Positions 1-60,000 of a stretch of DNA of 60,000 nucleotides are shown here, in pieces; positions within the stretch are counted from its first letter, which is position 1, and each line of letters opens with the position of its first letter. The position numbers and the translations under genes were made by a program. Under the pieces are notes generated by a model. It worked only from the letters and a program-made list of their open reading frames with translations, was not told where the DNA came from and searched no databases. Source of the stretch: Botryllus schlosseri (lineage: Eukaryota); the NCBI GenBank assembly GCA_051294905.1, contig CM119373.1:4776001-4836000 (forward strand), written 5' to 3'.

Positions 1-299
1 TACTGCTTCATAGCACAAGTTTACAATGACTACATTGGATGAATTTCCAAGTATGTTGAAGAGAGACGCAAAGTGGAGAAAGGACATGATCCGATTCGTC
101 ATCCGAAGCGAATAGAACTGCACGGAGACTGGTAAAACATGGTAGGACCGGCTTCCTGGCTATGATTTTGAGATCGCCCCTATTGCTTGCAAGGAAAATT
201 TGATGAACTGCGAAGTAGAAGACCCCTGCAACGATTAGCATTGCGTCTCATCATGTAGTCCTTCATGATGCATTTGTACCAAGACCACATCCTGAATAC

Positions 300-1470
300 A
301 TATCGATAAATACGTGCAAATTACAGCACTTATGTGTTGCTGATATTGATGCGAGGCGTGCAAATTACTGCCCAACATAACATTGAGCAGAGGCAGAGTT
401 GTCTAAAACATGGTGCGGTGCTGGAATAATAATATTAATAAGGGTTCTAGAAGATTCGTTGGAAATTACTTGTTAACAATACTGCAAAATATTACTCGAA
501 GATGTCTGTCATCGAGGGGATGCAGAGTTGTCAAAGACAAAGTGCGATTGGAAGTTGGGGTGAAGAATAATTAACAGACAGTTAACTCTCTCCATCAACG
601 GTATTTTGCATCCTAATAGAATGTTAAATACCTGAAGACCAGACAGGGTGTTTATGTTGAAATGGTAGACTAGCCCAAAGCCACCAGAGACATAATAATA
701 CAATCCCTATTATTTACATGAAACCAGGCAGGGCTTCAGAGATGATAAAAGGGCAAAGAAAATAGGGAGCTTTTCAAAAGGAACGAGCTAACAAACGGCA
801 TTCATTATCGCGAAGAACGATAAGGAAACGACTCAATATGTCAAAGACATGCAACGATTAGACGTCACGCGTGCAATACATATAGCTGCAGCATATATAT
901 GGACCCTGGAAAATAAATTAATAAGTCACAGGGACAGAGTAGTCGAGGATACGCCTCTGCTGGATGTAATGCAAGCCAACTACAGGTCTACGTGGAAATT
1001 GAAGAAAATGCTGCGCCTAGATGTAATGCATGCAAACCATCACACATGGCGCAGAATATAGATATTGCTGTATTGAACAAAGAAAATCCTGTCATAAGAA
1101 TGAGTGGTTAAAGATATGCTTAGATGAGACGTCATAAGGGCAAATTACTACATCTACGTGCAAATTAACGAAAATGTTGCGATTGGACGTAATGCGTGCA
1201 AAAGTATCACACATAGCGCAGTAGCAATAAATTTCAGAAGCCCCTGTAGTGTTGCATAATGCATGTTCTTCTACTGGGAGCTTGTTCAAAGATCAATTTA
1301 CAAAGAACCGCCTACAGATATGCCGAAACATGACCCTATTTGTAATTCGAAGCCAAATCGCAATAAATTTCACTAGCGCATAAAATGAAATCATGCATCT
1401 CGTGCTTTCAAATACTAGCAAGGTTAAATTGCCCAGTGTTCCCTATAGTGACGTGCAGAGACATTACCCG
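300..1470 (+). pseudogene. Degenerate orphan repeat-protein gene with a recurring motif like RVVKDMLRLDVxRANY
   Basis: + strand translations repeatedly give KDMQRLDVTRAI (about 843), EDTPLLDVMQANY, KMLRLDVMHANH, DMLR*DVIRANY and KMLRLDVMRAK, with stops and frameshifts. Nucleotide paralogy with 42230-44400. Confidence 0.4.
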
Positions 1471-1669
1471 ACAGGAGGGAGGAAAATGATAGGCTTTGCT
1501 AACGTTATATGATATCAGACTACCTAGTAACGGTTACAACATTCCAACTTCATGGAATTGTTGAGCTGTCTTCAGAGTCGATGCAAAACAAATTTAACTA
1601 AATTTCATCTAGTAGAAGCAGAGTTTTCCGTTGTTGATCCTCGGATTATCCACCATTCAAAGTCTATAT

Positions 1670-2639
1670 CAGTGGTTCCCAACCTTTTCCGACTCATCGC
1701 CCCCTTTTGAAACTCCACACCGATCATCGCCCCCCAAATATTAGGAACCAAAAAACAGCACTTCGTGACGCCCCCCCCCCCCCGAAAAAAAGTTGGTTTT
1801 TGGCCCCATAGGGTGATAAACCAAACCCCAGTCGCCCTCAGTTGGCTTTTTGTCGGTACATATCAGCTATACCCTACTTCATGTAGGCCTACTGTTTGGT
1901 GAGTCACCGTATTTCGTCAAAACGTACCAAACTAAAAGACGCACATGATTTCATATTGGTATTTCTTTACTGGCAAATAATTTTTTCCTTGCGGGATGGC
2001 ATATGTCCTGTAGGGTTTCGAGGTCGCCAGGACAGGAACATTCGACGCCAGCGAGTGAGGTGCCTATGGACAATTGAACATATATGCATTGTATATATAT
2101 CGAAGTTTTCAGTCAGCGCAAGGGCATTCCTTTTCGGCCAATTTCTTCTCGCTGCTGATCGTTCTGGCACACTTCTCGGACTTGCATGTTACATGGCCTC
2201 TAACTTCATATGTCTTAGTGCGTCGTGGCGCAGTAATGGCCGCTCAATCATGCGTATTTTTGTTGGGTGAAGGGGATCCCAACAACAAGATACATGAAAA
2301 GATGAAATCGCGCACGTCGCGAAATTTTTTTGAAAAAGTCGCATGAATTTCTAAAAAATGACTCTATCATTCATGTTAATTCACGAAATAATTTTGGGCT
2401 TCCTTCGATTTCGGGCCCCCACCCCCAATTGGGGGGTTTGGGGTACGGTAGTTACGGTCCCGACTCCAATATAGCCGTTTTAACGCGCCATCGCCCCCTT
2501 CGTTGTTTTCGCCCCCTTCGTCCGTTTTCGCCCCCCCTATCGCCCCTTTCGTTATTTTCGCCCCCCTAGACCGCCAAATCGCCCCCTGGGGGCGATATCG
2601 CCCACTGGGGGGCGATATCGCCCACGTTGGGAACCACTG
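1670..2639. mobile_element. Non-autonomous hAT-type element (CAGTGGTTCCCAAC TIR family)
   Basis: TIRs cagtggttcccaac...gttgggaaccactg; perfect 8-bp TSD gtctatat (1662-1669 and 2640-2647); subterminal TCGCCCCC repeats. Confidence 0.92.
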
Positions 2640-3762: not shown

Positions 3763-4830
3763 CTAGGGCTGTTCAAAAATAACCTTTTTTCCTGAATCTT
3801 GCTTGTTACTTGATTAAATCGTTAGGTTGCCTTAAAAAATGACGCACACCAAATTTGAATTCATTCCAACCAATATTCGCGGATTTCGTAGAGTTCAAAA
3901 TTTTCAACAATTTTTTTTTTCCAATTTTTCTGCCAACCCCATGAAATTGTTGCGCTGTCTTCAAAAACGATGCAAAACAAATTTGACTCAATTCGAAGCC
4001 GTAGAAGTGGAGTTATTTCAGTTTTTCTTTGATAATTCTTGGACTATCCTTGATTGGTGGATCATCCCAGAATTATCATCAAAAAACTTGAATAACTCGG
4101 CCTCTGCACCTTGGAATTGAGTCAAATTTGCGATTTCAAATTGGTATTTCTTAACTGGAAAATAATGTTCCCTCGACATGGGATTTGTCTTGTTGTGGGA
4201 CTCGGATCCCCTGGACATGAACATTCGGCGCTAGCCATTTAGGCGCCCATGGACACAGGCAATTACACATATATTTGTATATATCGAAGTTTTCGGTCAG
4301 CACCGGGGCAGTCTTTTTCGCCCAAGTTTTTCTCGCTGCTGATCGTTCTGGCGCACTTCTTGGATTCGCATGTTACATAGCCTTTAACTTCATATGTCTT
4401 GGTGCGTCGCGGCGCAGTAAGGGCCGACGCCGAAGTCTTCATTTGCATAAATCAGTCGTATTCTTGGCGCGTCATGGTGCGGTAATGGCCGACGCCCATT
4501 TCTATAAATCATGCCTAATTTTTGATGGGAAAGAGTACCCAATAATTAGCTATCTTACAATAATGAAACGCGCGTAGCGCGAAAAAAAATTCCTGAAAAA
4601 TTTCAAAAAATACACCATGATTTATGTTAATTCTCGAAATATTTTGGACCCCCTTCGAGCTCGGCCCCTCCAATTGGGGGGTTTAGGGTGCGAAAGTTAC
4701 GGTCCTGAGTAATTCTTACACAATGTTCATGCCACGCGAAGAAGACTATCATTCGTTAGTTTCTCGCAGATTAACTTTGAGCTAGCCCATTGTTATTTAT
4801 AACTTTGTTAAACCAGGTTTCTTGGTTGTA
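3763..4830 (+). mobile_element. Truncated DNA-transposon relic: TAGGGCTGTTCAAAAAT terminus followed by the shared core module
   Basis: The same terminus and following ~330 bp recur at 45814-46165, and the inverse terminus (tttttgaagagcccta) ends at about 34052. 4140-4830 matches 56460-57050 in reverse. Confidence 0.7.
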
Positions 4831-5689
4831 TTAAGGTAGCAAACCGGCGTGTATTAAGGTAGCAACCGGCGTAAGTATACTAACGGCTATTTACAGATTC
4901 GAGGAGCGTACCGGAGCCGCTGTGGCACATTACCTAGTAACCGTAATTATTAGTCTAGCGTTTAAATAGGCTACTTACTTCCTTCTTCACTCTTTCGTCA
5001 ACGTTCGGATTTCCTTTTCGAGTCTCCTTCAGACTCTTCAGTTCTACCTCCCCAGGTCTCGGAAAATTCTCGTTCCATACCATACCATACCATGCCCTGG
5101 GTTCATGTGCCGTGTTGATTACCATATAAATATGTGGTCTATGTACTCTCTCTATCTCTCTCTATATATATATATAAACTTCTATGATAATACACCTTTG
5201 CATATTCGCAGAGCGCACACGAGTGACAACTGTACCTGATACTGCATCTGCTACTACTGTCTGCCTCTAAACGTGGGACACATCCACATTCCGCATGCGC
5301 GGCCTTGGTCACGGACCAATTGTCCAATTATCAATCACGGACTCCGCGGCAAATTAGTAACCGGCTAATCTGTATGAACAACACCCTTGCGCACGTTAAC
5401 CGCTGATCGTGGTTACAGTCGAATCTCGTTTTGCAGTGATATTTTTGCAACATATCGGAACAGCCCAGATCGCACATTCATCTGGGCGCGGTTGATGAAC
5501 AAAATATATCGTATTCGTGCCCGTCCGGTCTATTTTCATAGTCCTTTATCAATTTTACGATGTCAAATGATCGTCTTATGTTGCGTAGAAACCTACATAC
5601 CTTGTATCGATGCTATGCATATAATATATAGTCGACTATCATCATTTAATAGCCCTCGACAGTTTTCTTTGTATGCACTTCAAATTTAT

Positions 5690-5830
5690 TTATGGTATGG
5701 TATGGAATGAAACTCCGGTATGGAATATGGGGTGCAAGTATTGTATGGTATGGGACTTTCTCGATTATGGTATGGTATGGAACTTTCCAGAGTATGGTAT
5801 GGAATGTTCTATTCATACTTCCAAACTTTT
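5690..5830. repeat. TATGG-rich subterminal repeat (MITE remnant)
   Basis: tatggtatggtatggaa arrays; complementary ccatac arrays at about 5075-5099. Confidence 0.55.
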
Positions 5831-6959
5831 CCATTCTTTGTCAGTTTTGCCAGAATCATGGCAGTGATCTTACTTTCGATTTGTCAAATTGATTGCATAC
5901 CTCAGAAAATCGCTCACTGAGTGCACGCGGGTCATACTAGTCGTCAGTCACCGGTCCCAGACGTATATAACTAATATAATGCCTCAAGTCGGGTCTGCAC
6001 GACCGTGTACCTGCGTCCATGTTGATACCAATTCGTCACTGGGTAACATTAACTTATTGTCGGTTTGTTCGCGAATCGTGATGTCAACACGTCACCATCC
6101 ACACATAACTACACCGGTGTTTGTACGGGACGGTACATTCAATCATTTGCATGAATAAACATAGGCCTACGTTGTATTACTATAACAATGAATTACCGAT
6201 CGGTATACTCCTTCTCCATTAACAGTATATCATTCAAGTACACAACGGTACAATAATTTTCGGCTGTCTTTGTAATCCGACAAAGAAGTATATATTAGAT
6301 CAGGCGTAATGCATGCGTTACAAATCTGAGCAGCTACGTCCGTTATGTTATCGTGAACATTTAACACGACCTATCCACACACCGTGGTGTTACAACAATA
6401 TCAACCCAGACCAAGTTATTTTCCTAATAAATACATGCGTATTTCCGTTCTTATGCACAACAAATTTGTTGTTTTAAATCGAAAGGAGATATCCGTATCA
6501 GACAATAACGATAGTTACGTCACGAATATTCAGCATATGTACTGTTTACGTCGTCTAATCTACATAGTGAAAAGCCACGCCTGTCACTGCACTACCAAGT
6601 AGTAGAAGTATACCAACATTCAAGTCAATACAGTTGTCGATGATACCGGCGATACTATATGACGTAATGGACGTGGGTAAACTTAGCGCTCGTGCACATA
6701 GTCGACATCCCCGTGGGCGTGTATACAGGCGGTTGTTGTTACTATTGATTGCGACTGTTTCTGTGTAAGTGCGCAAACTACGTAAGGAAAACCATTCATA
6801 ATAATTATGATCGCATTGTGTGACGACAGCTTGCCGTCTGTTCAGTACCCGTTTGCACCATCGAAAAGTCATCATTGAAGTTATTTTTTATTTATACATA
6901 TCATTCGATAATATTCTGGTCTTGCTGTCGAGATCGGTGTATGACCAGTATAATCCAGG

Positions 6960-7790
6960 TCGTGCCATCAATTTGCTCGACCCCGTAACTGTAGCCCGTG
7001 TCGTCTGAAAGGAACATGAGGTAACGTCACCATTTGGTCCTGACTATAATTGTATGCTCCAATGCGACGTACCATACTCGCCTGTATCATCCGCCACGCC
7101 ACTGGTTTCTCCTTCGTCGGACACGGGTTCAACGCTGCAATGTATTGGTGGTAGTCGACGCCATTATAAATGTTATCGTATAATAAATGCTCACAATTTG
7201 TATTCGGCATGTTCGGCATCACCCGCTTCGCCCGCTTGAAGTTGTGTATCCCAACTAAACGCACCACCGTTTTTTTTATAACACCGTGTAGGACAGTTAA
7301 GCGATATACTGTGTGTACAAACCTGCGTGTTTCTACGGTAGAGATTCCCATATCGACTGAGGAGTCGTCCCTCATCGAGCTGTAACATAACATTATGCCT
7401 ATCATTATCCATGATAGCTGCATATTATACCAACTAACTCAACACACACTAATGGCGTGTCTATACAAGTACTATACAAAGCAGCACTTACTCCTCATCA
7501 GTACGGCTGTGGTAGTCGCCGTCCGTGGCCGCATCTTGGACAGGGTCCACGCACTCTTCGGCCCGCTCACGTATTTCAGGAATACCGGCGTATTCGTCCA
7601 TCTCACGTATTTCAGGAATACCGGCGTATTCGTCCATCTCACGTATTTCAGGAATACCGACGTATTCTTCCATCTTTTTCCGTAAATGGCACAGCCGCTC
7701 CACTTGAACATTAGTAATCAACGTCGGAACTGGCAGTGGCTTGACCACTGTGACGACATAGCGCTCTCGTACCGGACGTGGTGGCATTAG
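6960..7790. pseudogene. Orphan gene relic, copy 1 of a tandem paralog pair
   Basis: Collinear similarity to 8310-9060, with substitutions concentrated at third codon positions in places (STEESSLIEL vs SAEESSLVEL on +). Coding strand is not resolved. Confidence 0.4.
7566..7670. repeat. 36-bp tandem repeat, 3 copies
   Basis: ctcacgtatttcaggaataccggcgtattcgtccat x3. Confidence 0.9.
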
Positions 7791-8309
7791 CCTGATGAAG
7801 TGTTTGCGGCTCCCGTATTGGTCGTGCGTATAAAGTAAAAACTACTGCTTTTTCCGTATGAACGCACAGTGCATGGCTAGTGGGACATTGCGTATATTGA
7901 TATTTTGAAAACCTGCGAGTGTCGCTGTCCTATCTGTCGCGTTATTATCTTGGACCGGATTCGTCACTGGTCGTCCTTGGAATCAACATTATCACAATTA
8001 GCATAAACGTTTTGTGTTACCAGCTATGGACAGCGAATTCTCACGTGCCATTATGCAATTTATATTAAGAAAAACCTTCGGAAAACTTATGCTTGCATTG
8101 ACATGCGTTACATTCTGCATTGTGTTAGGCACCCCTTTGTACTATCAAACAGTCGTCGCGTTTCATTCCACAAGCTTTAATACTGAATAGTCGTAAAGCA
8201 CGGAATAATTACATAATAATAAATCTTATTTTCAGGGTGGCGTCGGCTTAGGATACCGGTGGAATATAAATTTGAGTAGGATACCGGTGGAATATAAATT
8301 TGAGTCGGG

Positions 8310-9060
8310 TAAGGCAATCGATTTTCTCGACCCAAGACTGGTCGTCTTCATTCACTCCTGAAAGCAACATGAGGTAACCATTTGATATTTCCTACAATTA
8401 TGTTCCACTACGATACCATTATTATCTGTATCCGCCGCTACGGTAAGGGGCATATCTTCCGATTGCTGTACTTTCTCGGTGACTGGATCATTTTCATAGT
8501 GAGCGCTGAAAATGTATGGGTCTGAATACGCGAGATGATGACATTATAAATGTAAGCGCATAATAAATGCTCACAACTCGTCTCCGGCACGGTCGCTGTC
8601 GCTCTTTAATGGCGATGTGAGCTGCGGGTACCAACTAAACGCAATATGTTTTTGATGAATACCGTGTATATATATACGACGGTTAAGCGACAGAGTATGT
8701 GAACAAACTAGCGTGTTTCTCTGTTATTGAATTCTCGTTCACATTCGGCCGAGGAGTCTTCATTGGTCGAGCTTAACAATGAAATTATGCAGATTATAAT
8801 ACATTATAGTTAACTATTACAACAACTCTATACATAACATTGGTACTTATATACAAGTACTATACAAAAGTATCACTTACCATGCAGTATCCGTGGTAGG
8901 TTCACTGTCCGTGGCCGGACAATGGTAATTACACTCTCTAATTTGTGGGATGCTGTTGTCGTCCATGTCGATTTTACGAATTGGTATATTTGTTCCCCTG
9001 TTACATTACTAATCAACGCCGGAACCGACAGCGGCTTGGCCATTGTGACGACTACTGCTA
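8310..9060. pseudogene. Orphan gene relic, copy 2 of the tandem paralog pair
   Basis: Shares blocks ctgaaag(c/g)aacatgaggtaac, ataataaatgctcacaa, ccaactaaacgca and tacaagtactatacaaa with copy 1. Confidence 0.4.
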
Positions 9061-9385
9061 TCGTGCAGAACGAGGTGAGCATTCGAATGTTAAGGGTGTG
9101 TTATGGTGACGTCTATTAATCGCTGACATCATACATACCACCAATGGGGTATACAACCAATTATGTATGATTAGCGCATGTTATTACATTGCTTGATAAC
9201 GAGACAACTTCGCGCATTTCTATTCTTATTTTGTTTTCTAGCGATCGTTTTGTAAGCTATGCACTAACAATTGTCATTCATCATTGTGAGAGTACGACCT
9301 GTAATAAAGTAGATTAGTCCTTATGTTGCTGCAAAGTACATTTCGTTTGTGTCGTAGCGACGGATGCCATAGCGTTAGACTAGCC

Positions 9386-10109
9386 CAGGGCTGGCCAACC
9401 TTTTAAGCCAGGCCACATTCGATTGACGAACTTTTGCGCGGGCCACTATCCGCGGGAAGCGCGAAAATTTTCTGAAGTTCATAGGTCAATAATATTGTTA
9501 CTTAATAATATTGTTACTTGACTATGTTGTGGGCCTGCTTGGGCCTGCTATATATCGCGGGGCTAAGTTTGCGAGGACTGGACTATTCGGCGCATGGACA
9601 TATCCGATATCGAAAGCTGCGACCAACATGCGTCAATCATATCGTGCCTAGCATAGTCGACAGTCTTACTGCGAGCGCAAACGCGAAGTCGCATATGCTG
9701 AACGACACTTTGTCTCGTAATCGCGAATATAGTTGGACTCAATCTGATACATTAGGTGTTCTTCCATTTTGGCAAAAGGGCAACAATATTAAAAACAAAA
9801 TCGAGTGACAACATATAGCGCTAAGCTTGTAGAAATTTTTTAACTTTGATAAATTTATCGCAACTTATTCTGCTTTATTGTAGTGTACGAATATCTACCA
9901 ATATGTGAATGGCTGACGGATCTGTCAATGCGTCGGAACTGATATTTTAGTCTTCACATCCCAAGTGTTGCGGCCAGACTAATCAAATTATTGGTTGGCC
10001 TTGCAAGTTTACAATATGTGCAATCCATTTTTGATGATATTAGAAATTTCGGAAATTACCTCGCGGGCCACTAAAACCTTGCCCGCGGGCCACGGGTTGG
10101 CCGGCCCTG
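9386..10109. mobile_element. Non-autonomous hAT-type MITE
   Basis: TIRs cagggctggccaacc...ggttggccggccctg; perfect TSD gactagcc. Confidence 0.9.
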
Positions 10110-11934
10110 GACTAGCCCGTCCTGCCGATTTTTATATCCCGATATCAATGTCAGTACGTCAAATGAACATATTATTTCGCGTCAAAATCTACATATATGA
10201 TATGCATATAGTAGATAGTCGACTATCCTCAGTTAATAGCGCTTGACCGTTTGGTTTGTATGCACTTCAACTGTGTGTTATGTAGATCATGGATGTTTAC
10301 CACAAATTAATGCCTACGGTCAGCTTGGATGTAGTAAGCTTGTCATAACATAGAACATGACTATACAATATAAATGTTTATTCTGAATTGGTCAAATGTA
10401 GTCCAATGGAAGTATGTCGTCAATACCCATTGTCGTAAGTCCATGTCCTTAGTTCTACAACAACAATGTTGTGTTCTGATAACTCCTGTCATAATATATA
10501 ATAAACACATCAGGCGTCAGTGTATTGAGAAATGATTCGGCGACTATTAGTTGTAACCATATTATATCGCAATCAGGCATGCATATTATCCGTCACGTGA
10601 AATGTATACTATACATATCAGCAACCAACCACTCGTAACAGTCCTTGAATAGCATTGTAATAGAGTGTTCGACATTGAAAGCGGTTCGTAGTTGACATTT
10701 TGTACGATCGTGGTCACAATTTATATGCACCGGTTGCTTTTTAGATCTAATACAAGTCGACCTTCAGACATACTATTGCGTATCGCTCCAACACACATCT
10801 CACAGCTTTAATGTGACATAATTACAACGTACTTGTAATATACTTTGGAAAATATGTCCGTTAAATATAAAATATAGCCGTACTGGTAACCATGGTTGTA
10901 AGGAGTGGACTCTGTCCGAGTGAGGGTGGGTCGATGGATGTATTCGACAATGCAAGCGTTATTAGCTGACATTTATAGACGTTCGTGGTCGCCATTTTTA
11001 CATGGTTCTGGTCTCATTTTCAACAAGACGAACTGAGACTTTTGCAATCCTCGGACTGCGAAGATGTCATTTTGAACAAAAATTTCTCATTATGCGTATT
11101 TGGACGCGGCACATTCATCGATTCCGCAGTCTCATTTTTTGAACCGAAAACCTGTGCCACAGTGGAATGCGTCTTGCGATAGAGCTGTAAGACGCAAGTA
11201 ACCGGCTCTCCTCAAAATATTACGAAAGTTCTGCATAAATGATGCCATCCAACATATAACCGCATGCGGTCGGAATGCCGGAAAATTATACTTCTAAAAG
11301 GGAAGAAGTGGAAAAAACATTCCAGTAAAGTTAGGAAGCTCGTACGCTCCTGTTCTGGTGTTCATTCCTAAATTAAATGCCATACCTAAGATCAGTGCTT
11401 TTCAACCTTTTTGAGCTCCATTCGCACTTTTTTTTGAAAAATAATTTCATTCGCACAAGTCAGCCGAAATTTAGTACACGAAAAGAAAATGAAGAAACTT
11501 ATCACTTTTGTATTCGAAGGGCTTCTTGGAGGTACAGAGCTTCATTATTTTGCATTCAGCGTATCGTATTATTGACTAGTCAAGTATACTAAAATCAAAT
11601 CACTACAGTAGAAAAATCACAGATATCGCACGCCCGTTGTTCTCAAGAAGTTCGTTGCATTTTCCGGGGGTATCGTGTAGTGATTTCCATGGAAGCTTAA
11701 AGGGCGAACCCAAGAACAATATTCTCTCGCAGCAATATCACTTTGCCACTAAATCCACATGTTACGTCATCGCGATGTAAATGTGTTTGCATTTAGAACG
11801 CACAAAATAGTGAAACTGCACTTGAATCGTAGCATCATTGTTGCGACTAGCACCTTTGGTTCATTTTTCTGACAACATTCGAAAAGATGCTTCGCGTACT
11901 AAGGTATGTTAGATACGTACTAAGGTATGTTAGA

Positions 11935-27060: not shown

Positions 27061-27066
27061 ATGGTA

Positions 27067-32670: not shown

Positions 32671-32795
32671 AAATAACCATCCATCTGGCTTCCAGGTAAT
32701 TTTTAAACCTCAAGACATCTAAAAATGTTAGGCAATACTTCTCGTTCAACCACACTGAGCAGGTTTTTTTTTCATAGAAGTTTTTTTTTCCCTAC

Positions 32796-40951: not shown

Positions 40952-41048
40952 ACCAAATTTTATGTAGATCCGTCGCCAAAAACGTGTCCAAAATAGATAA
41001 CTATGAATTATAGCGCTTGTAATTTCAACCAAATACGCGAGAAGCTTA

Positions 41049-46165: not shown

Positions 46166-46189
46166 GTAATAAATTTGTTTCGGTATTCT

Positions 46190-46506: not shown

Positions 46507-48466
46507 TATATGTAAAACGACGAAGGAAGACCAGTCAGTTCGAACTAACTACAACTAACACCACTGAAATCGACGATCACATCACAGGTTTCAGTAAATT
46601 AAGTTGATGGAACTGTACTGCACTAAACATACATGATGATTGATGCGTCACTGACGCACCGATCGACGCTCCTTGGAGTTGAGGTGACTTCCAATTTTGA
46701 AGCTGATACATGATATCTGGAATTTGGAGTCTGAGACAGACCAGCAGCAGAAACTTGATTGCGGTGCTGATTTTTCTTATCACATCACAGTCATTTCTCC
46801 ATCAAACCAAACATTACATGACGAAATTTCAGAAGAGTTCTGGATGACTGACTACGTCAATCAATATTGAAGGAAGCGTAGTTGATGCGAGCAGAGCAAA
46901 GCAAACGGTAGTAGTTATTTGTGGCTGTTCAGAAATTCGGAATATTTTGTTTTTACAGGGTAAGATCAGCTTACGTTAGTGATTTATGTATTGTTGAAAT
47001 CTTTAAAGCGGGCTTAGATGCTGGTATGCCTCTGTGAGCGGATCTTACTAGCGAAAATTCGTCGCAATGTCATTAAATCATTGTAACACATTGCATAAGT
47101 TATTATGTTTTCCATCCAGAAACTTGCTTGTTGTATGTATATTTCTCACAGATATAAAGGTAATATTGATGTAACACTTATTATCGATATCTCTCACTGC
47201 AAATTGCAAGTACGATGAAAGTTGCGAAAAGTTATCACAAAAGTGGTACCGTATCGGATATTATCCTGTTCCAACTGATACCAACGTTGGGAATACATTT
47301 TCACAAGATGGACCTATTACTGCGTTGAATGTCATCAGGATAATGGGATATATTCCGTTATGATCATGAACTTGCTGGAAGAATCAGGGTAGCTAAAGGT
47401 TGTACCATTGGGAAGCCCCTCTGTATGTTGCTGATTGTAAATGTTTCGCACAATTACTGGGGTAGCATGAAAATGAGTCACGAAGGAAATATGGAAGGAG
47501 GAATGTGACTATAGAAGACTGCAATGACAGCAACGTGGAAGATTCTGGAGATCATATCTCATAATACAGTGACATTCAGCTGTGCATTCAAAGACTGCAT
47601 CTCAAGGCAGGGAGCAACTGATGCACTGCGAATGATATTGGGCGGCTTTAATTTTGTGAACTACAGACACTGCTCAACGTAAATGCCTTGCTAGATCACT
47701 AGGTTAGTTACTCTCCAGTCCCCAATTGCAGTACAGATGGCTGATTTTTATGCACTAGGCAATCATTTTTGCATGTTACCCGTCATATTACAACTTTACA
47801 AGGTGTCAACTGTCTGTGTTTTGGTTTGTAATCAATAGTGTCTTCTGGTCAGAGCTATCGAGAGATATCGGGGGCAAAACTTACAACACTCCGGAAAAAT
47901 ATCTGTAGTAAACTCCGAGCCCACTCCGAGTATCACAAAATTGGCAAAACTCCGCTCCGGAAACACTCCGACTCCGCTCCGATGCTCATCACTGGTGTAT
48001 TCACAGCGTGTTGACCAAGTCACCGAGTACTGCATGAATAAGTCAATCCTACTTTGACAGCCGAAAAATATTCGGGTTTATTCCAATATAAATATACTAT
48101 TCAAATGTTTATTGAAGTTCTGTTCCCTCGAGAAGCTTTTCTCACTTCACACCTGGAATGGCCTCATTTTGAAAACAATACCACCGATAGACCAACGACC
48201 TCATAAATCTTAATGCAATGTATGGATTACTGGAACGACGGCAACTTCCGCATTGTGTGATAACTTCACTATGAGCTGAAATAACCTCCGATACAATGGT
48301 AATTACCGGCCCCAATTTGCATCACATACATTGCAATTGAAATTATAATTGTATTAAATGAAATGAAACAGCGCGTCAGATGAACAAATGGGATCATGTC
48401 ATTCATCGGACTTCGTCACTGCGTTGCCACGTTTATCATTTGCCCAGGCACACCTGAAATAAAATA

Positions 48467-50290
48467 ACATAAATTCAATATTTCTTCAATGACAAGTTCC
48501 AAGAAACCCAAATTTGAGAACTGTAGCATAGAAAGTCTAGTGTGATGTTCACCCCTACAAAAATCTCGGTACGTTTCGCCTAATATGTAACACGTGAGCA
48601 GCGATTTTTCTCCAAGTTAGTGTTAATTCAGTGAAAAAGAGTAAATTCAATGAAAAAGAATTGTGAGACACAGATTCCACAGCTCAATGATCACACACAC
48701 CAAATAGTGAGCTCCACAGCATAGTTAAAGAAATGCAGCACTCAAAAGCTTAGTTTGGGAACACCAAATAGTGAGCTCCACAGCATAGTTAGAGAAATGC
48801 AGCACTCAAAAGCTTAGTTTGGGAAATGCAGCAATGCAGCAATCTGATAAATGTAACGAAAGTGTACCTTGGCGTCCTCTTATATGCTCGTTTGACTTCT
48901 TCTGCGCTGGTTAAAATTATTGCGACTTTGCTTAGAATGGCACATTCCGCGGCGAGTATTCAAGAAGACACGAACGGCTCACATCAATGGAGGCCTTCGC
49001 TCCTAGCTCTCAGTCTTCGACTGACATCGTTGACATGGAAATGTCTCGAAACTTTCAATTTTGATGCGGTAAACTTTGAAAGTCGACATGGAAGAAATTG
49101 TTTGGAAATGTCAATCTAATGAGAAATTTGCTGTTACCTTCTTTGTAAACAATTCGCAAGAATATTGTTTTTCGAAAGAAATGCACCATTGCCGTTTGCT
49201 AGGTACTCAATATCCTGCTAAAATACAACACTTGTTGCATTGTTACGGGCGATAAGAAGTCCAAATCAGACCATGAGCTCTGTCTCACAACAAGATCCGG
49301 AAAACACGTTCAAAAATCACATGATATTTGACTTTTCAATTCAATTAATGGAGCAGCGTCTAACTTTTTCCGATTCACAACTGAGACATATAAAATTTTG
49401 ATATATTCGGCATACCAGCACGAAATTTGACATGAATAGGCACTTGAGAACCACTACTATGCCATACAGTACATAAATCGGCCTTAGTCGCTCAAGAGAA
49501 TTATCAACGTACTGTACTGCCATACCCAATCCCGATTTCTACTGGCTCGAACCCACCGGTTGTGATGAAGGCAGTAGCATTTGCTTTAAACACGCTACAC
49601 GCTCGGCCTTCTCCTTGAGCTCCTCACACACGGCGTTCGACTCTAGCTGCAAAGTTCAATCGAAGATCAGACCACGATGCAGCAAACGCCTCGTGACAAC
49701 ACAGCGTCCGCAGGTGGTCAGTAATGAAGTACTACTTTTCTGAGTACTCAAGACTACATAACTTCTAACTGAAATACTTTCTCTTTAAGGTAAGATTTTG
49801 AAAAGTATCCATGACATAAATTCAATATTTCTTATAGAAATGGGTTCTATTGGGCGATCTTGAATATAATCGACTCTTTGAATGACACTTCCAAGAAACC
49901 CAAATTCAAGAACTGTAGCATAGAAAGTCTAGTGTAAGTTCACCCCTACGGGAATCTCGGTACGTTTCGCCTAATATAACACATGAGCAGCGATGATTCT
50001 ACAAGTTAGAGTTAATTAAATGAAAACAAAGGATTGTGCGAGCAAAGGACACAGATTCCACAGCTAAATGATCACACACATCAAATTGTGAGCTCCACGG
50101 TATAGTTTGGGAAATGCACCAATCCGATAAATGTAACGAAAGTGTCTTGGCGTCCTCTTATATTGAATGATGGCATATTCCGCGGCGAGTATTCAAGAAG
50201 ACACGAACTGCTCAAGAAGACACGAACTGCTCACATCAATGGAGGCCATCGTTCCTAGCTCTCAGTCTTCGACTGACATCGTTGAAATGA
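48467..50290. repeat. Dispersed direct duplication, about 500 bp (48467-49035 and 49815-50290)
   Basis: Shared blocks acataaattcaatatttctt, ttccaagaaaccc, aagaagacacgaac and tcgactgacatcgttga. Confidence 0.8.
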
Positions 50291-50693
50291 AACCACGTGG
50301 CGAATCTCACTTCTTGCGCTTGAGTGATCCCAAGATTCAGCGTTGTTCCGAACTGACGCTCCTTGCACAATGCATTGAACACTGAATTTCAGGAAGGATA
50401 CGATAGGAAACGACGAAAATGAATGCTACGTGTGTCGGTAGCCGAGTTTTATACCTAGTTAATCTTCAATATTAAAACCTGTTCAATCCACGTTTGACGA
50501 CTACGCGTATGTGACATTGAATGCCTCGTATTGATAATACGGCAGTATTCCTCTCACTTACAACTAGAATGGTCCTAATTTGCAAACAACAACACTGATA
50601 GACCAAATATACCTCATGAATCTTAATGTCAAACAAAGCTACCAAATGGTACTCGTAAATGTAATCTTGTTTTTATTAAATCGATTTACTAGA

Positions 50694-51062
50694 TTATTAT
50701 TATTATTACACACAACAACAGTGGCGCTTATCGCCTGTGAAGGCCTTGTGCGCCACGACAATGCATTTAGTACAGTTCAGTATCTTTGCTTTCGGTCTTT
50801 TTTTGCACTTCTTTGTTCATGCTCGCGCACTCCCACACTTTCATACATTCATTCTTGCCTTCCTTGCGTTCACTTCGGGTCTCTGCTGCCGTCTTTTGGA
50901 GCTCGGCTTACTCTGCCTCTGGGCTTTTTATCAATGCACTGCGTTAGCAGCGGGATCGGCGATGAGGAGCCCAGATAAACCTCCGACACATAGAAACATG
51001 GTAGAGCCGAGACTCGAACCAGGAACCATTGGTGTCGTGACGGTGTCGCTTAGCATGCGTTT
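50694..51062 (-). mobile_element. Second tRNA-derived SINE with a (TAA)n tail
   Basis: Minus strand reads gcatgctaagcgacaccgtcacgacaccaatggttcctGGTTCGAGTCtcgg (box B) and ends in ttgttgtgtgtaataataataataat. Confidence 0.6.
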
Positions 51063-51508
51063 TTATTATCCAGCCCTTCCATCCGTATTCGCGTCATCTC
51101 GTTCTTGCTTTTAATCGCCTTGTTTCTCGTTAGCTTTCTTGCTTTTCCGTCTTTAGACCGCCTCGAAACTACGATCCGCAGTTGCTCTGCAAATTAAATC
51201 AAACGAGGCGGCAGAATTTGTAGGCGAAAAGTTATTGAATACACAAACCTACGTGCTGTAGCATCGCTAGCTGGTGCTGATTAGTTGTCTTGCTTTTCCA
51301 TGTCCATCGCCTCGAAGCTACGACCCGCAGTTGCTCGGCAAAATAAATTGAACGAGGCGGCAGAATTTGTACGCGAAAGGTTATTGATTATAAACTAACT
51401 TACGTAGCATTGTGATTGCGGTCTACCGAGTTATTGTTGTTTCGCCGAGAAATTTTATTATATCGATCTATTAGCTATGTTGACAAAGTTTTCAAGTGGA
51501 TCAGCACA

Positions 51509-52052
51509 TCAACGATTTTGACATACAGAACAAAACCATAGAAAAGACGGAATTGGAAGAGGATTAGCATGGTACCATTTGTCGCATTTCACCATTTCAG
51601 GTTGAGAATCAGAATAAGGCAGCTTGCACACACAAAATAGTGGCAGGTTTAACGTTGCGAAAGGAGCTGGTATTGGATTTTCGACAGAGAAATCCAGTAA
51701 ATAGACATTTCCTACTTCATTCATGGTGAGACAGACACATCTGCCGAAGTTGTTGCGTATAAACCACCTTTTCTGGATTTAACCCAAAACACACGGTTAT
51801 CGCATTAGTTATGGCGAAGACGCCGCAATCACTACCGTTACCTTGCTGTTGGACGCGGGGAAAAAGTACTTCTCAAGAGTGCTCGAACACGGCCTAGTAA
51901 GCATGCTGATTGAACATACGGTTTCGTCGTTATGTGCCGAAGAATTATAGGCGGAATCATACACACATACATATTTGGCCATCTGCACAGAACATGTTCG
52001 AAGCGGTGACCCCCAATGATTGTTATTTATTTGAATAAATTTTTTTCTTGCT
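51509..52052 (-). pseudogene. Ulp1-like (C48) cysteine protease plus PHD finger relic
   Basis: FIQINNNHW...VYDS...QQGNGSDCGVFAI (H/D/Q/C pattern) followed by FCVCKLPY...MVKCD(deletion)KWYH...WFCSVC. Confidence 0.8.
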
Positions 52053-54063
52053 TTCATTTTCACCGGAGCTCTACATAAAATTCAGCCGGAGCTGGAGCCT
52101 GTTATTTGAGGAGTAGCTCCGGCTCCGTCGTATTTCATAAGATGCTATTATATATATGCAACAACCACATCTGCTGATTTATCATAATTGAACAGCAGGC
52201 CTGAATTTTAATGCTGTGTGCAGCAATGGCATAGCGCAGTGCTTTTCACACCCTTTTTGAGCTCCATTCGCATTTTTTTTTGTGAAATAAATTGCATTCG
52301 CACCAAGTAATAGAAAATGAAGATACAATAAGAAAATGAAGGCCCACTTAACAGTATCATTGCCGTGAACTAGCAACCTAGTTAATAATCATATGCACCT
52401 CTGAAAGCGATATCGATATGTTCATGCGCAGGACGAAGGCAATACCGGACAACTCATAGTGGAGCAACGACGTGTCGTTCCTGCCGATGTATCGATGCGG
52501 AAAGAGGAAAATTGTTACGCAACATTTGTACTTACGCTGTTCAGTCGCCCTCGAACGCCTTGTCTCCTGTCTCTGTAATACGTTGCGTCGTATCCGTCTA
52601 ATGCTAACGCAGTGTTCCTTCTTTGCTATGTTGGCTCGCCGCAGGAATGCAAACGTCATGGCAGCGCGCAAACTGAAGCACAAGACCGGCAACCAGTCCG
52701 TGAAGTAGTTTCAAAACCGACCGCGTTGAATGACCCCGGACCAGGCATGACTGATAAGCGCCCGTCCACGTCACGCATGTTGACAGACGTTAGTATGGAC
52801 GACGTTATTAATAATAGCTCCCGCTCATATAATATATGTCACCACGACTTATTCAAAGGAGTTAGTGGCAGTGCCTGACGTTCCGAGAGCATCATCCTTC
52901 GGCTCAACGATCCAACCAACCCACGTCATCACTACGCCAACTCGTTCTGTGTTGCCGATAGTGTCCGACGATTGCTCGACCGACGAGGTGAACCCATTGC
53001 AGAATGGTACATATTTCCAGTCTTTTAGCTGTTCTGCCTCTTTGATGAAAGTTCTGTACACGTTTGCTAACGAACGTCTGTTGCTCTTTTATGCAAATAG
53101 GAGATCGATGTGGCTGCCTTGTGCACCGAAGCAGGCACCGATGGACCGAATGAGTTGGACATGTCAGAATTAGCAGTCGGAACAACGGTTAGTACCTAAT
53201 TGCAGTCGCATGTCACTTGTCATACTCAGTCCGGTATGCGCAGGGCACGTCTGTTACGATCGAGACGCGCCACACGATACCTGGTGTTAGATGCCAATAA
53301 TCGGATAAGAATCAGTTGATCTCCGGTCTGACGGAGGGTCAATTACTGTGCATTAGGGTTGTTCAAAATTTGGAAAATGTTTGGAATTCTGCGTGTCCAT
53401 CGCTTATTCTATAGATTATTGTTAAAAAACAATAATGGGCTTGAAAGAAGCTCGCAGGAAAGCCGGTAATATTTGTCTAAATGTGTTTGAAAGTAGCCGT
53501 CGGCGAGTGGGCGGGGAATCGATGAAGTGGGCGGGCAAAGAGAAGCCATTAATCCTGATTGGTTGAAGCCGGTAATAATAAGCTAATGATTGGCTGAAAG
53601 ACCGACTTTGTGAACACTGCTGGTAACGATTTTTGCGTTCTGTTGTGCAGTCGTTTCTGTTGGTGGCATTACAGACATGATATATTGCCTTTGTTATTGT
53701 TGTCATCAAGAGTCCATAGTACAACATTGCAACCGCGTAAGTTAATATCTACCTGCAGAATGTGTATAAGTGCTATGTATTGCACAGGTGCTCTCGCTAG
53801 ATGAGATACGAATAAACTAGATGCATGCATCTTGCTACCTTCTACCTTTCCAAAAGTTACTGACAGTGAGTGAAACTCAAAAATTTACCACCAGGAGTCA
53901 ACATTTCAGTAGTACTTGTTATGACTAGTCCACGTCTCACCCATAAACAAACGCATATTACACTTTTTATTCACAATTGAATGAAGGCGAAAAGCACTAT
54001 TTACAAAATACATTAAAAAAGTACGTGCAGATCAGTGTTGCATTGTCAGGCGCAAGTTGCAGA

Positions 54064-57000
54064 TTACAGGCTTTTGATTAGAGTTGACTTCCTGCTGTCT
54101 CCAACTGTCTTCCTATACTGTTCCACAGCTTGAAGCAGACTGTCTCTTTGTTGTTCATTGTCAGTCAAGATTGCAGCATAGTCTGTGCTTAGCTTTACAT
54201 CTCGTTCTGCGGCATCATTAACGACTGTGACAGAACTGATGTAGGAGCTCATTCTGGTGTAGGAGCTCATTCTGGTGTAGGAATCTGATAAGTGCCAAAC
54301 ATCAACCGGTTGAGCTAGCCACGCCCCAGAGCATTCAAAAACATCAAATATGTACCACGACTGTGGCCCAATAAAATCAGACAAAGTAGTGTCCTTGTTG
54401 ATGTGTACAACAGTTGCATTCAACGAGCTCGGGCCTCTCCTGAAACTTGAAGTTCGCTACATCTCGTTCTGCGGCATCATTAACGACTTTGACAGAACTG
54501 ACGTAGGAGCTCATTCTGGTGTAGGAATCTGATAAATGCCAAACATAAACCGGTTGAGCTAGCCACGCCCCAGAGCATTCAAAAACATCAAATATGTACC
54601 ACGACTGTGGCCCAATAAAATCAGACAAAGTAGTGTCCTTGTTGATGTGTACAGTTGCATTCAACGAGCGCTGGCCTCTCCTGAAACTTGAAGTTCGCTC
54701 TACCTGCAGGAGCGTCTTTGCCATATTTTCTCGGGTTTCATTGCTTTCACTCGGCGAAAACAAGGCATATACAGCGGTTTCATCCACGATATACCAGTCA
54801 TGCTTCAAAAGCTTTTGTGAAGCAGCTTTGGAAACTTGTTCATCATGTTCCTTGTAACTCAACATGTCCTGGATGAATCTCAAGTCATTACCGGCTGCAT
54901 CACGACCGATGCTGGAAGCAACCCAGGCAGGGATGTAAAAGAGAACTAAAAATAAATTGAAGCGATGCAGCAGTTCCACTTCTTCAGATTTGTAATGTAA
55001 CTGATCAGCCCACATGAACATCTTCTGAGCATACAGAATTGTGCCCATCTACATTGTATGGTGTTTTGCACCAGGTTTGTGATGATGTATCTCCATCTGC
55101 ACCGGGAAGAGCAAGAGCATTAGTCACACATTGTTTGTAGTCATCCCGTGTGAAGAAATCTTTTCTGGCGAGTAGTAGCTTGAAGTTCTCAACTTTCATT
55201 GCTGCTCGTTCTTTGAAGCATATAGGAATAGTCAGAGTCTTGAATTGCTGTTTTCTGTCAAGACTGCTCCAGCTCTTCTTAAGTTGGGCAAACTTGGACA
55301 AAGCTTCATATCGATTTCCTAATCTATCCTCTGTGAGCTTTCCATCACAATGAATGGCAACATGCTGTGATTTTCGGCAGATTTTTCCAAAATGTCCCGA
55401 GATATTTCCAGGCGATTTGTTTCCCTGGCTCTCTTCGTTGAAGATATTGACAGGGTGAACATGGCGATATCTCCTCCACAAGCTTTAATAAATGCTCCCA
55501 TCAGCATCGTTGCATCCTTGTCAGTTAGTTGCAATCGATCCAGAGCTTGGGACACATGCGTATTTTTCATAATATTTTTAGGTGCCATCAGTTTAATGGA
55601 TTGGGTCGAGGTTCCAAGTCCAACATCAGCATCATAGTCAGAACTTGAACTCAAACTGTCACACTCTTTTGAAGATGACGATGATTTGATCTGCAATGGC
55701 TGCTGTTTTTTTTTGAGGTCTTTAGCCAGAATTTTGTCTCTTCCCAACATTATTGACTGGCGAGATTGCCGTTGATCTTCATAAAATGCAATGTCTTCAA
55801 GCTTTCTTTCATGTGATAGATAAATGTCATTTTCTATTGTTGTTATGGCATCTCTACTTCCAATATCCCACAGCTTGTCCAAATTATCAGTGAATTTTCT
55901 CCTCTTACCCTTGGGATCACTTTCCTGTTTCGGATTCTTCTTCAGGTCACGCCATCTTTCGTGCAGGTTTTGAAGTGATCGCACCACATGTGATTTCTGC
56001 ATTGTCGCAATTCTCGCCATTTTCCACACTGTCATATTACATCATCCACCACCACAGTACATAGTTCATGAGCAATGTTCCCTCTAAGCTGCGCACGTGC
56101 GCAAATGCGCAGTGCTGAAGCGGTCTCTGCGCACAGAAAATCTAAGTTGCGCACAAAAAATCCGAAGTGATGTTTTTTTTTAAAGTCGTTGCGCACTGTT
56201 GTCCAAGGGACCACGCAGGCGCGCAAACTCGTGAAAAATTAGGGGGAACATTGCCAGGGGCAATTAGTGTTATCGCTGAAGTATTACACCGAGGTACAAG
56301 TGCGGCCCGCAAAGGTAAATATTGCGCTCCGTGACGAAATGAGACTTTGCAATCACGAGCGCCTAACGAAAAATCTTTTCTTTTAGTATGGCCTCGTACG
56401 CGTGAGCGATACTGATATCATTTCAATAGCGCATTATTTTCTGGGAATGGCGAAATAACATGGTTTAACAAAGTTATAAATAACAATGGGCTAGCTCAAA
56501 GTTAATCCGCGAGAAACTAGCGCATAGTCTTCTCCGCGTGTCATGAACATTGCGTAAGATTTCCTCAGGACCGTAACTGCTGCACCCCAAACCCTCAATT
56601 AGGGGACCGAGATCGAAGGGAGCCCAAAATTATTTCGTGAATTAACATAAATCATGGTGTATCTTTTGGGAATTTTTCAAAATTTTTTTTCAAATTTCTT
56701 GATTATTGAGTACCCTTCCCACAACAAAAGATACGCTTGATTAAGAGAAATGGGCACTTGGTCGTTGGCCATTACCTTGCCACGACGCACCAAGACATAT
56801 GAAGTTATAGGCTATGTGACATGCGACTCCAAGAAGTGCGCCAAAACGATCAGCAGCGAGAAAACCTTAGCCGAAAAGGACTGCCCTATATATGCTGACC
56901 GAAAACTTCGAATCATACATATAAGTTTAATTGTCCATAGGCGCGTAAATGGCTGGCGCTGAATGTTCATGTGCTGGCGATCCGAGTCCCACAACAAGAC

Positions 57001-57754
57001 AAATGCCATGTCGAGGGAATATTATTTGCCAGTAGAGAAATACCAATTTTAAATCGTGTTCGTGTTTTAGTTTAGTACGTTTGAGCGATTTCAATGTCTT
57101 TTGACATAGCCGATAGGAGGTCACGAAATAGCATCATGTAACGAAGTCATTATACCAAGGGGTGCGCCCGAAGATGTTTAATTAATATTTAGAGGACCTA
57201 TCTTTTCTAACACACCTCACTCGATCAGCTTTACCGGTAAATCTGATGATGTGAGCAGAGAGAGGATAAAAATGGATAGCAATAGATATATGCAATTCCC
57301 GATGATATTGACCGATTCAATCATGGATGATATCAAATTTTCGCGCTTCGCGCGTTCAGGTGACACAACCACCCAACCAGCCCCCGATTTAGATCAAAAG
57401 TATCAGCAAAAAGCGCAGAACACGATAGGGGGGTCTGGGGGCGAAGCCCCCAAGAAGTTCAGTTTATCAGCTTATGTGGGGGGATGGTTGCGCACTATTT
57501 TCCAAGGGCCTGCGCAGTGAGTTACCGTGTTTGCGCAGACTCGTGAAAAATTAGAGGGAACATTGTTCATGAGTAGAGTTTGACTGAGGACGATGCTCTT
57601 TCAGATGCAGCAAGTAACTCATTACTTCTCGTATAGTAGGTAATCTCGAGCCACAGATGTAATCGCAAGTATATCCGACCAAGTACTGCTCAGATTTGGA
57701 TCATGTTATTCGCTGCGGCATGTGTGCAATCTTTCGCGGTTTTGCCTGTGCCAT
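54064..57754 (-). pseudogene. hATm-like transposase pseudogene
   Basis: N-terminal YLVG...GSRLPTIREVMSYL, VWKMARI, LDKLWDI, FYEDQR, IHCDGKL, RDDY and VNDAAER. The DTT/CRHH block is deleted, there is a 244-bp tandem duplication, and an insertion at 56073-57565. Confidence 0.88.
56073..57565. mobile_element. Nested hAT-type element with an extra internal right end
   Basis: caatgttccctctaa...ttagagggaacattg; perfect TSD ttcatgag; a second right-end copy ends at 56253. Confidence 0.92.
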
Positions 57755-58573
57755 GACTGCACTATTGTTGCTCCAAATCATGAACTACTGCTATCGACTC
57801 TGAAGCATTCAAAGAACATGTGTTACAGTACTACTAATGACTCAACCCACAACGCGATTGTACAGAACCACAACCGCTACTAACAGACTCTACCTCAGCA
57901 AAACGGACTTTCAATTTAGTAAAGCGAAGCTCCCTTATCCGAGTCAGCTGTTGCAGTAATCAGTGAAGCTTAGCCGATTGCCCAATCAAGAACCGTGGTT
58001 TAGTGATTGCCCGCCTCTGCTGTCGGTTGCCCACCCACTCTTCAACAACGACTTTCAAACGCATTTAGACAAATGTTAGCGGCTTTCCTGGGAGCTTCTT
58101 TCAAGCCCATTATTGTTTTTTAACAATAATATACAGAAAGGACACGCATAATTCCAAACATTTTCCAAATTTTGAACAACCCTACTGCACATGTTCGAAG
58201 ACGACGACTTCGGAGAGGTGAGCACCTACTCCAGTAGTTATGATTCATCGGTTCCACAACGGATTCGGCGCAGTAATAATATGTAGTAACAACGTGCTGT
58301 GTCATATTACAGAACAGCGACAGCGCAGAAGTACTATCACCTGTAAGGTCCAACATAAAACCCATTACAGACGCGGACCTTGAGCAATTGTTCGACGGTA
58401 GCACTCAAGAGGTCATGGTATTGACGCCGGTTTAAACGGAGTTGAAGTAGACCCATTACATACGTTAACACTTATTCCACAGGACTCAGACGACGAGGGG
58501 GTGGTTGCGATTGACTAGGACACCGATGTTGCAGGCCCGTCTCCAAAACGTTATGAAGACATGCATATACCTT

Positions 58574-59230
58574 TTATATAATTATTGTAACATTGTTTAC
58601 CGAGTGTGGGGGGATTTCAGGAGCTGTTGTGAGGTGTTTTACGATTAGTACATTGGCATCATTTCGGGTTGTTCGCAAATAAATGCACTTCGTTGATCGC
58701 TGCTCGTGTTGTAATGGTAGCACGTGTGCACATTTATTTGCATAACCATCTTTCATAGCATAGGCTATATACCGTGACATTGATCCATGCCACTCAGTGA
58801 TTTGTCAACGTAGCGGAGATATGCGACATGATAGCCAGTAACGACGATAGGCCGGTATCGACATGGATTACGATACGAGCAATAACGCTCGACTTGCGTA
58901 CCTTGACCGAGTCGACGTAACAGCCTGTACGACAACCAATAACTGAGTTTGGAGCTGTAAGCTGTAACCGCCTTCAACATCTGATAATGGTGGTTCGGAT
59001 TAAGCATAATCATTTTACATCGGAATATCTACCTTTTTGATACAGTTGTTCTCTAGAATGTATGTTGTCCGAGTGTGGCTCAGCTGGCAAAATATACTGG
59101 TACTGCACCGGCTATGCATGAGGGTTATACAACTCAAATTAGTGTCGGATTGTCATGATGAAGTTTATGCAAAAATTTGTATGTTTGCAAGATTTCGGAG
59201 CACAAAATGCACTCATACCGCATGAAAAGG
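58574..59230 (-). pseudogene. Possible orphan gene relic
   Basis: Adjacent protein-like ORF fragments on the - strand (MIMLNPNHHYQMLKAV...); no family recognised. Confidence 0.2.
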
Positions 59231-60000
59231 GTGTACGTTCACAATGTCGCAGTAGTCTTTACATGTTGTTCGATTTATCTAACTGATGTCTAATTTAACG
59301 GTTGCAGCTAGCTTTGAGTCTGCTATGTCAGTTTAGAGTAAAAATCATCAAATAACTAATCGGTATACGGATTATTTTGCACTCAGACACATTCGATTGA
59401 CTTCTAATTTCGCTATGGACTGATTAAAGCATGCCTGCACCATTTAGAAGCAACAAATTTCAAATACCTCTTTACTTATTCACCAAACTATTGATCAATG
59501 TTGAAAGTTGATTGTCTGCCATTTCGACCTTATGGAAAGAAGATGTCACATGGACAGGAAATGTTGATCTCGTAGGACCTCCAATGCTGATCAAATTTGG
59601 CGCAGTATAAGCACTAATACTGTTCTACTGCTGAACCTATTGCTTTTTTCATATGAGTTTCACTACGCACTACGCAACTTTTTTTACCGGGAATATTCTA
59701 TAAGGAGAAGCATCAATACTGCGAAACGTCTATACAATACTCAACAGATTTGAGGCGCCTATAGACTTGGAGCCTTTTCCTGTTAAGATTATGTCAATTA
59801 CTTGTACATATGATAAACCACAGTAAAGTAGGACATGATGAAACTCTGAATATGTACATTTGTATACGATACAACATCAGTTTAATTCACACACACGACA
59901 GAATATACTACAGCGATCTGTTAATGCAGCCAACGGCCAATGATACTGCTCATGGAGCAGTCGGTTTTAACATCATTATACCATAGTATTATGTAATCAA

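Follow-up and report, generated by a model that had tools for sequence, protein, structure and literature searches.

A 60,000-nucleotide stretch of the Botryllus schlosseri genome (contig CM119373.1, positions 4,776,001 to 4,836,000 of the forward strand; hereafter the window, numbered from its first letter) consists of AT-rich animal DNA, with a GC content of ~0.42, in which a probable decayed tyrosine recombinase (YR) gene lies at 39000 to 40900 on the plus strand, among other coding relics and ordinary transposons. A preliminary description had proposed that the DNA left after removal of the transposons, the background, might be the fossil of one giant cargo-carrying YR element or an endogenous DNA virus. 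A hand-made mask of transposable elements (TEs) covered 34,706 of the 60,000 nucleotides (58%) and left 25,294 as residual. The data were the window sequence, protein searches, and contigs and reads of four public runs placed on positions 37400 to 53340 only; three of these runs were contig sets (X5, X6, and X7), and the fourth was RNA (X23, of which ~6% was read). Pfam scans took in 273/273 open reading frames (ORFs) of at least 60 amino acids and 206/206 residual ORFs of 40 to 59 amino acids (479 in total).

The start of the YR gene is approximate, and its frame is interrupted by several stops and frameshifts. Two C2H2-like fingers are recognizable, one at 39721 to 39780, seen in translation and matched by Pfam zf-C2H2_4 at an E value of 0.64 only, and one at 39925 to 39987, seen by eye and with no Pfam match. 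Downstream, a stop-free frame of 158 codons (40062 to 40538) was placed by Atlas with core-binding/Phage_int_SAM clusters (0.93 to 0.96, recognition 2522) and is a candidate core-binding, SAM-like N-terminal integrase domain; shuffled proteins attain 0.95 in 1 of 100 cases, and such a match is a lead by Atlas's own terms. The frame had no Pfam or PHROG match, its fold model was poor (mean confidence, pLDDT, 55), and a BFVD search with the model returned no match at an E value of ≤0.001; another fold model had a pLDDT of 50. After a frameshift, 40588 to 40854 probably encodes the N-terminal half of the catalytic domain. It drew 10 matches among 1.84 billion proteins; one of them, P0004, is a true homolog (114 amino acids, E value 4e-10, 47% identity), a singleton from a 2.3-kb Logan contig, and the other nine, long immunoglobulin-like or fibronectin-type repeat proteins, were dropped as composition artifacts. 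A G-T-R-L-S motif is common to the window YR and P0004 and is a candidate for box I, the arginine motif of YRs. Neither this catalytic half nor P0004 had a match in Pfam, PHROGs, or PDB. The H-x-x-R, the H/W, and the catalytic tyrosine were not identifiable by eye, and the C-terminal catalytic half was not found. We regard it as very probable that 39.0 to 40.9 kb is a tyrosine recombinase gene, and the plus-strand zinc finger-YR of the preliminary description is thereby upheld by its fingers, its SAM-like frame, and the homolog of its catalytic half. A YR on the minus strand at 38893 to 39954 was rejected; it had no Pfam or PHROG match and is read as an antisense shadow of the plus-strand gene.

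Directly after the recognizable part of the YR, at 41021 to 41400, stand two copies of a high-copy repeat of ~221 bp (depth 10455 at one site, with a joint in X5 that goes back 221). With ~100 times the depth of its neighbors, this repeat occupies the expected place of the C-terminal half; one of its frames has a faint YR-like patch, probably by chance. Longer proteins were found neither with the SAM-like frame (0/495 candidates) nor with alignment A1 (0/483), and searches of viral contigs, metagenomes, and prokaryote genomes gave no related loci. X23 had no RNA reads in four bins over 38996 to 41123, whereas bins of high-copy repeats had reads. At 38606 to 38647, loose ends in X5 and X6 suggest a hairpin family of ~77 bp with 24-bp arms, the right arm of which breaks off where the YR-bearing DNA begins. 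As a target site the hairpin was rejected, no partner half being present in the window (0 matches; 5 versus 2.1 expected).

Three further coding relics follow to the right. The first, a repeat-motif gene at 42336 to 44335 on the plus strand (copy B), is present a second time 42 kb away, as had been described, with 86 to 90% DNA identity; this copy A, also on the plus strand (1 to 1543), runs off the window start. Its 11-residue motif has six instances, at 849 to 1206 and 42986 to 44335, all on the plus strand and none on the minus strand, with 0 to 1 in nulls; four of the six belong to copy A, and two of the six are the equivalent site in copies A and B. Between instances there are 52 synonymous versus 58 non-synonymous codon differences, a synonymous excess that is partly circular because the instances were chosen by protein score; a set chosen on DNA, chance matches included, showed no codon bias (p 0.51). 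The second relic, overlooked in the preliminary description, is a decayed Ulp1 (C48) protease with a PHD finger at 51515 to 52048 on the minus strand (Pfam C48 E value 0.0027). A paralog of this module, P0011, is 86% identical and matches PHD at an E value of 2e-8 and C48 at 0.004; two metagenome matches to P0011 were weak (31 to 33% over 58 residues). Ginger1 and Mutator transposases are described as having this order, Ulp1 C48 and then a PHD finger, in their C-terminal tails (PMC2836005). The third is an acidic orphan gene, the S/T/D-rich 5′ part of which (52579 to 53345, plus strand) is cut by a transposon at 53354 to 58184; 58185 to 58560, also on the plus strand, is probably its 3′ part, continuous across the insertion. 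The short introns attributed to this gene were not borne out, the only GTRAG..YAG candidates being 17 and 28 nucleotides long and without RNA support.

The background had been seen as a dense series of decayed genes. That claim stands for the overall count and fails for most of the residual. In a test that used an earlier mask (residual of 26,285 nucleotides in 13 segments) and expectations from dinucleotide models, the residual held 20 uninterrupted frames of 100 codons or more, where 11.2 were expected (p 0.01), and 8 of 130 codons or more, where 2.3 were expected. The excess is local: only 3 of the 13 segments reach p<0.05, with p values of 0.003 for 4830 to 9377, 0.027 for the segment that contains the YR, and 0.037 for 52400 to 53345; the other 10 show no significant excess, and 4830 to 9377 alone stays significant after correction for 13 tests. 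Seven of the 20 long frames overlap the YR segment, and two lie in a segment that holds a probable relic of a long interspersed nuclear element (LINE). The significant segment contains an orphan cassette on the minus strand (5399 to 9100; ORFs at 7841 to 7488, 7438 to 6968, and 6887 to 6555) with a CpG observed/expected (o/e) ratio of 1.30, for whose ORFs there was no usable match in Atlas or Pfam and a best PHROG match, to a family of unknown function, at an E value of 0.0016.

The closely packed same-strand ORFs at 6.5 to 7.8 kb (p 0.003) are among the features expected if the residual were what remains of a large DNA virus, nimavirus-like or of another kind, that had become endogenous, with the cassette and the CpG-rich segments as viral genes and the zinc finger-SAM-YR protein as integrase. 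CpG o/e is indeed 1.2 to 1.4 in several residual segments, and Kawato et al. (PMC10871703) describe it as typical of majaniviral YRs to combine a C2H2 domain with a SAM-like domain at the N terminus. We nevertheless judge a viral origin possible but unlikely. The overall gap in CpG o/e is small (1.14 in the residual versus 1.04 in the masked DNA), no ORF remnants of polymerase- or capsid-gene length are present, IMG/VR holds no relative of the YR parts, and there are no telomere repeats (0 tandem TTAGG or TTAGGG dimers in the window). Capsid, polymerase, terminase, and packaging ATPase were absent from the Pfam scans of the 479 ORFs, which are insensitive on decayed DNA; this negative is weak because the identical scans missed both of the window's transposases. 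The preliminary description had likewise reported no such hallmark and no termini, and at this low sensitivity we found none either. The boundary on the side of the YR shares no 11-mer, direct or inverted, with the remaining residual DNA.

The tandem orphan paralogs of the preliminary description were recovered by DNA-level comparison, at 7162 to 7788/8542 to 9083, 5519 to 5683/10115 to 10270 (within the longer pair 5519 to 5713/10115 to 10300; 75% identity, the second member on the minus strand), and 48485 to 49040/49878 to 50292, the last pair making up a low-copy duplicated segment (48440 to 50330) seen in self-comparison and depth. Codon periodicity was significant in none of six residual paralog pairs (0/6). 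In the two longest cassette pairs, the ratio of non-synonymous to synonymous differences (pN/pS) was 0.7 to 1.25 across all frames; the lower best-of-six values of other pairs (0.26 to 0.48) rest on few differences or stop-filled frames and give no robust dN/dS signal. Since periodicity is lacking and pN/pS is near neutral, most of the divergence between paralogs arose after the genes had died, or this DNA was never coding. Near-neutral divergence is also what duplicated host-gene pseudogenes spread by segmental duplication would show, and the relics other than the YR might be such pseudogenes; we think this unlikely, in that none of the residual ORFs could be assigned to a conserved host family, the Ulp1-PHD module is of transposon type, and no spliced RNA covers the low-copy parts within 37400 to 53340 in the ~6% of one run that was read. 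An ORF at 28164 to 28568 (minus strand, 134 codons), CUB-like by eye, was set aside for want of any Pfam or PDB match.

The Pim-like kinase of the preliminary description was not confirmed. At 16322 to 17620 on the plus strand, a patch is kinase-like by eye and resembles Pim in the order of its motifs. No tool bore this out: there was no Pfam or PDB match, and a profile built on the kinase domains of 85 viral-contig sequences, generic and not Pim-specific, was negative in both single-frame and frameshift-aware searches (scores of 8 to 20 in the target bins versus null maxima of 26 to 30). The left 28 kb, which holds the ORF cassette and this patch, is linked to the YR solely by the partial second copy of the motif gene. 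The proposal that the whole background is a single element is not supported.

For the copy number of the right-hand relics we turn to depth, the values of which are not equivalent to copy number. Five X5 contigs (depth 80 to 92) are nearly identical to the window. Summed X5 depths were 243 to 326 in three YR bins, 276 at 43.8 to 44.3 kb, 288 at Ulp1, 256 at the acidic relic, and 107 to 180 at 44.8 to 45.4 and 48.6 to 49.6 kb; in TE bins they ran from thousands to hundreds of thousands. The residual DNA is low-copy, because its X5 depths fall far below those of the TE bins, perhaps with one or two copies for each haploid genome. Depths in X6 were 24 to 26 for two YR bins versus 2 to 17 for their low-copy neighbors, the YR thus exceeding most neighbors 2- to 5-fold. 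The segment 49104 to 49635 was covered in X5 and X7 and essentially not in X6, a possible presence/absence polymorphism.

We read the background as a mosaic, comprising a dead zinc finger-SAM-YR gene, a low-copy duplicated block, and unrelated orphan and TE debris, and not as one element; the probability we assign to this is roughly 0.5. The reading is based on the 58% of the window that is maskable as TEs, the 10 of 13 segments without ORF excess, and two pieces of apparent background that are ordinary TEs (46.2 to 48.1 kb, high-copy, and 14.6 to 15.5 kb, LINE-like by eye), and also on the near-neutral paralogs, the Ulp1-PHD module as a known transposase tail, and the lack of a shared 11-mer and of telomere repeats. 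It is based further on the YR depth of 24 to 26 versus 2 to 17 in X6, on the uncovered 49.1 to 49.6 kb there, and on YR-like genes occurring outside viruses in decapods (PMC10871703). The domains, breaks, duplications, low copy number, and TE overlay are in plain view; the past mobility of the YR, the size of its element, and the independence of the parts are what we infer from them.

Several observations weigh against this mosaic. The low-copy block has the YR at its left margin, pointing inward like a captain gene. The YR, 43.8 to 44.3 kb, Ulp1, and the acidic relic have similar X5 depths, as expected of one low-copy unit. For the Ulp1 and acidic parts there are contigs 85 to 92% alike, and an X5 contig of depth 112 connects 43221 with 51810 via a diverged linker, so that the motif gene and Ulp1 would lie next to each other in a further copy. 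No transposase core, DDE or KDZ, was identified upstream of Ulp1 in the window, a difference from Ginger1 and Mutator transposases, and some oomycete Cryptons are described as carrying a Ulp1-type C48 protease (PMC3212892), a precedent for YR plus Ulp1. The edge position of the YR, the 85 to 92% paralogs, and the X5 joint hint that the right third of the window may belong to a multi-gene unit present more than once. They allow a serious, though less probable, alternative, in which the block from 38.6 kb up to 58.6 kb or beyond is what is left of a single large, low-copy, YR-mobilized cargo element, in the order YR captain, motif gene, Ulp1-PHD, and acidic gene, with 1 to 1543 as the remnant of a second copy, an element that would work like a Starship without being one. 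To be set against it are the lack of ends, the uncoupling of YR depth from its neighbors in X6, and the joint's dependence on one contig with side lengths not shown; segmental duplication accounts for the same data. Unlike the supposed cargo, the YR has no 85 to 92% paralog among the contigs listed: those from X6 and X7 differ from the window by at most 4 letters in ~500 (~99% identical), and YR paralogs may be hidden outside the contigs listed, which is a further point on the side of the cargo element.

The YR can be compared with several known systems. It has in common with the telomere- and 28S-associated YRs described for endogenous nimaviruses (PMC10871703) the order C2H2 finger(s)-SAM-like-YR and a host of marine invertebrate type, a likeness of domain order only. 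It differs in that no nimaviral core gene was seen in Pfam scans made without nimavirus profiles, no telomere repeat is present, and no ribosomal DNA (rDNA) target was seen, rDNA not having been searched with Rfam. With Cryptons it shares a YR as the only recognizable mobility gene and the absence of terminal inverted repeats (TIRs), animal Cryptons being described by Kojima and Jurka (PMC3212892) as lacking terminal repeats. The window YR departs from Cryptons in its N-terminal C2H2 fingers and in having no DUF3504 or other Crypton-type Pfam match; Cryptons form multi-copy families with definable ends, often with non-autonomous derivatives, and the window YR is very low copy in three contig sets. 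With its YR at one side pointing inward, its low copy number, and its possible unrelated cargo, the right-hand block may resemble Starships, described from Pezizomycotina fungi (Gluck-Thaler et al., PMC9156397), but the window lacks DUF3435 (no PF11917 match in the Pfam scans), DUF3723/FRE/PLP/NLR cargo, and ends bounded by target site duplications (TSDs). The likeness to Teratorn consists only of the claimed pim-like kinase, which was not confirmed; Teratorn is described as using a DDE enzyme and not a YR (PMC5601938, PMC10175614), and no piggyBac transposase, TTAA-bounded ends, or herpesvirus core genes were found here (Pfam, 479 ORFs, with low sensitivity on decayed DNA). By analogy, then, the YR locus may work like a Crypton or nimaviral integrase locus, and it fails the Starship and Teratorn features tested.

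Under the mosaic reading, the YR would once have belonged to a Crypton-like or nimavirus-YR-like element and served as its integrase. Its fingers and SAM-like domain would bind the element ends, and the recombinase would excise and integrate a circle via a 3′-phosphotyrosine intermediate, as suggested by YR biochemistry and by PMC3212892. The gene would then have been fixed at low copy and lost its frame, its 3′ end cut off or obscured by the high-copy repeat. The low-copy block of motif gene, Ulp1-PHD, and acidic relic would have been duplicated mostly after gene death, and younger hAT-like, Gypsy, LINE, and short interspersed nuclear element (SINE) insertions would have piled in later.

Ordinary transposons make up ~35 of the 60 kb, and the TSD-bounded insertions of the preliminary description were found as seven elements with TIRs and exact 8-bp TSDs. 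They lie at 1670 to 2639 (non-autonomous, and presumably hAT-like), 9386 to 10109, 11393 to 14527, 22954 to 27333, 25463 to 26757 (nested in the preceding one), 34212 to 34665, and 56073 to 57565 (nested in the 53354 to 58184 transposon). Within 22954 to 27333 there are tandem arrays of 152-bp and 31-bp units (24654 to 25452 and 27066 to 27251). Two transposase relics, related at an E value of 2e-15 between their C-terminal parts, lie at 29942 to 32187 on the plus strand, within a TIR pair at 29086 to 34098, and at 54064 to 56041 on the minus strand, as part of the 53354 to 58184 element with its TIRs of ~190 bp; we take the former to be hATm-like. Both (29940 to 32190 and 54060 to 56045) are CpG-depleted, with o/e ratios of 0.73 and 0.58, and contain tandem duplications (358 and 244 bp) within them; the YR, Ulp1, and the cassette are CpG-rich (1.28 to 1.38).

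A Gypsy-type gag-pro-reverse transcriptase relic occupies 19580 to 21235 on the plus strand (Pfam DUF7041 E value 4e-14, RVT_1 E value 2e-7). Two DUF7041 pieces, of Gypsy gag type, lie 1 kb apart on opposite strands, at 18245 to 18676 (minus) and 19580 to 19807 (plus). What we take by eye to be an R2-like endonuclease lies at 21.3 to 22.5 kb; 21240 to 22490 would be the 3′ portion of such an element, containing a tandem duplication of 294 bp; it lies in the orientation opposite to a Gypsy reverse transcriptase, which its insertion truncated. The LINE-like piece at 14.6 to 15.5 kb presumably encoded a reverse transcriptase, judging by eye. Depth marks 45.5 to 48.1, 50.9 to 51.1, and 41.0 to 41.4 kb as high-copy. 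The first of these is transposon debris (45531 to 48129; depths of thousands to hundreds of thousands), partly transcribed, with an ORF that we take to be BED-finger-like; within it, multi-copy TE-like DNA at 46900 to 47750 had 20 to 100 X23 reads, from both strands. Throughout the window there are many exact tandem duplications in two copies (16 to 50 bp), which suggest that slippage is strongly favored here or across the genome.

YRs are rare in animal genomes. In literature searches aimed at it, the C2H2-SAM-YR layout was met with in endogenous nimaviruses alone, and an animal cargo element led by such a YR did not turn up at all (subscription journals and Repbase were outside the scope). 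It is possible, though less probable than the mosaic, that 38.6 to 58.6 kb is the fossil of a giant low-copy cargo DNA element of animals whose lead gene was a C2H2-SAM-YR integrase from a lineage hardly sampled so far (one true homolog among 1.84 billion representatives). The copy in the window is too decayed to prove such an element alone and is useful as a probe with which younger copies could be sought in this genome. If the right-hand block is one unit, animals would have Starship-like cargo elements, and the element would be an animal counterpart of the fungal Starships and a possible non-viral reservoir of nimavirus integrases. A second, virus-free setting of the C2H2-SAM-YR layout would bear on the origin of the nimaviral integrases themselves.

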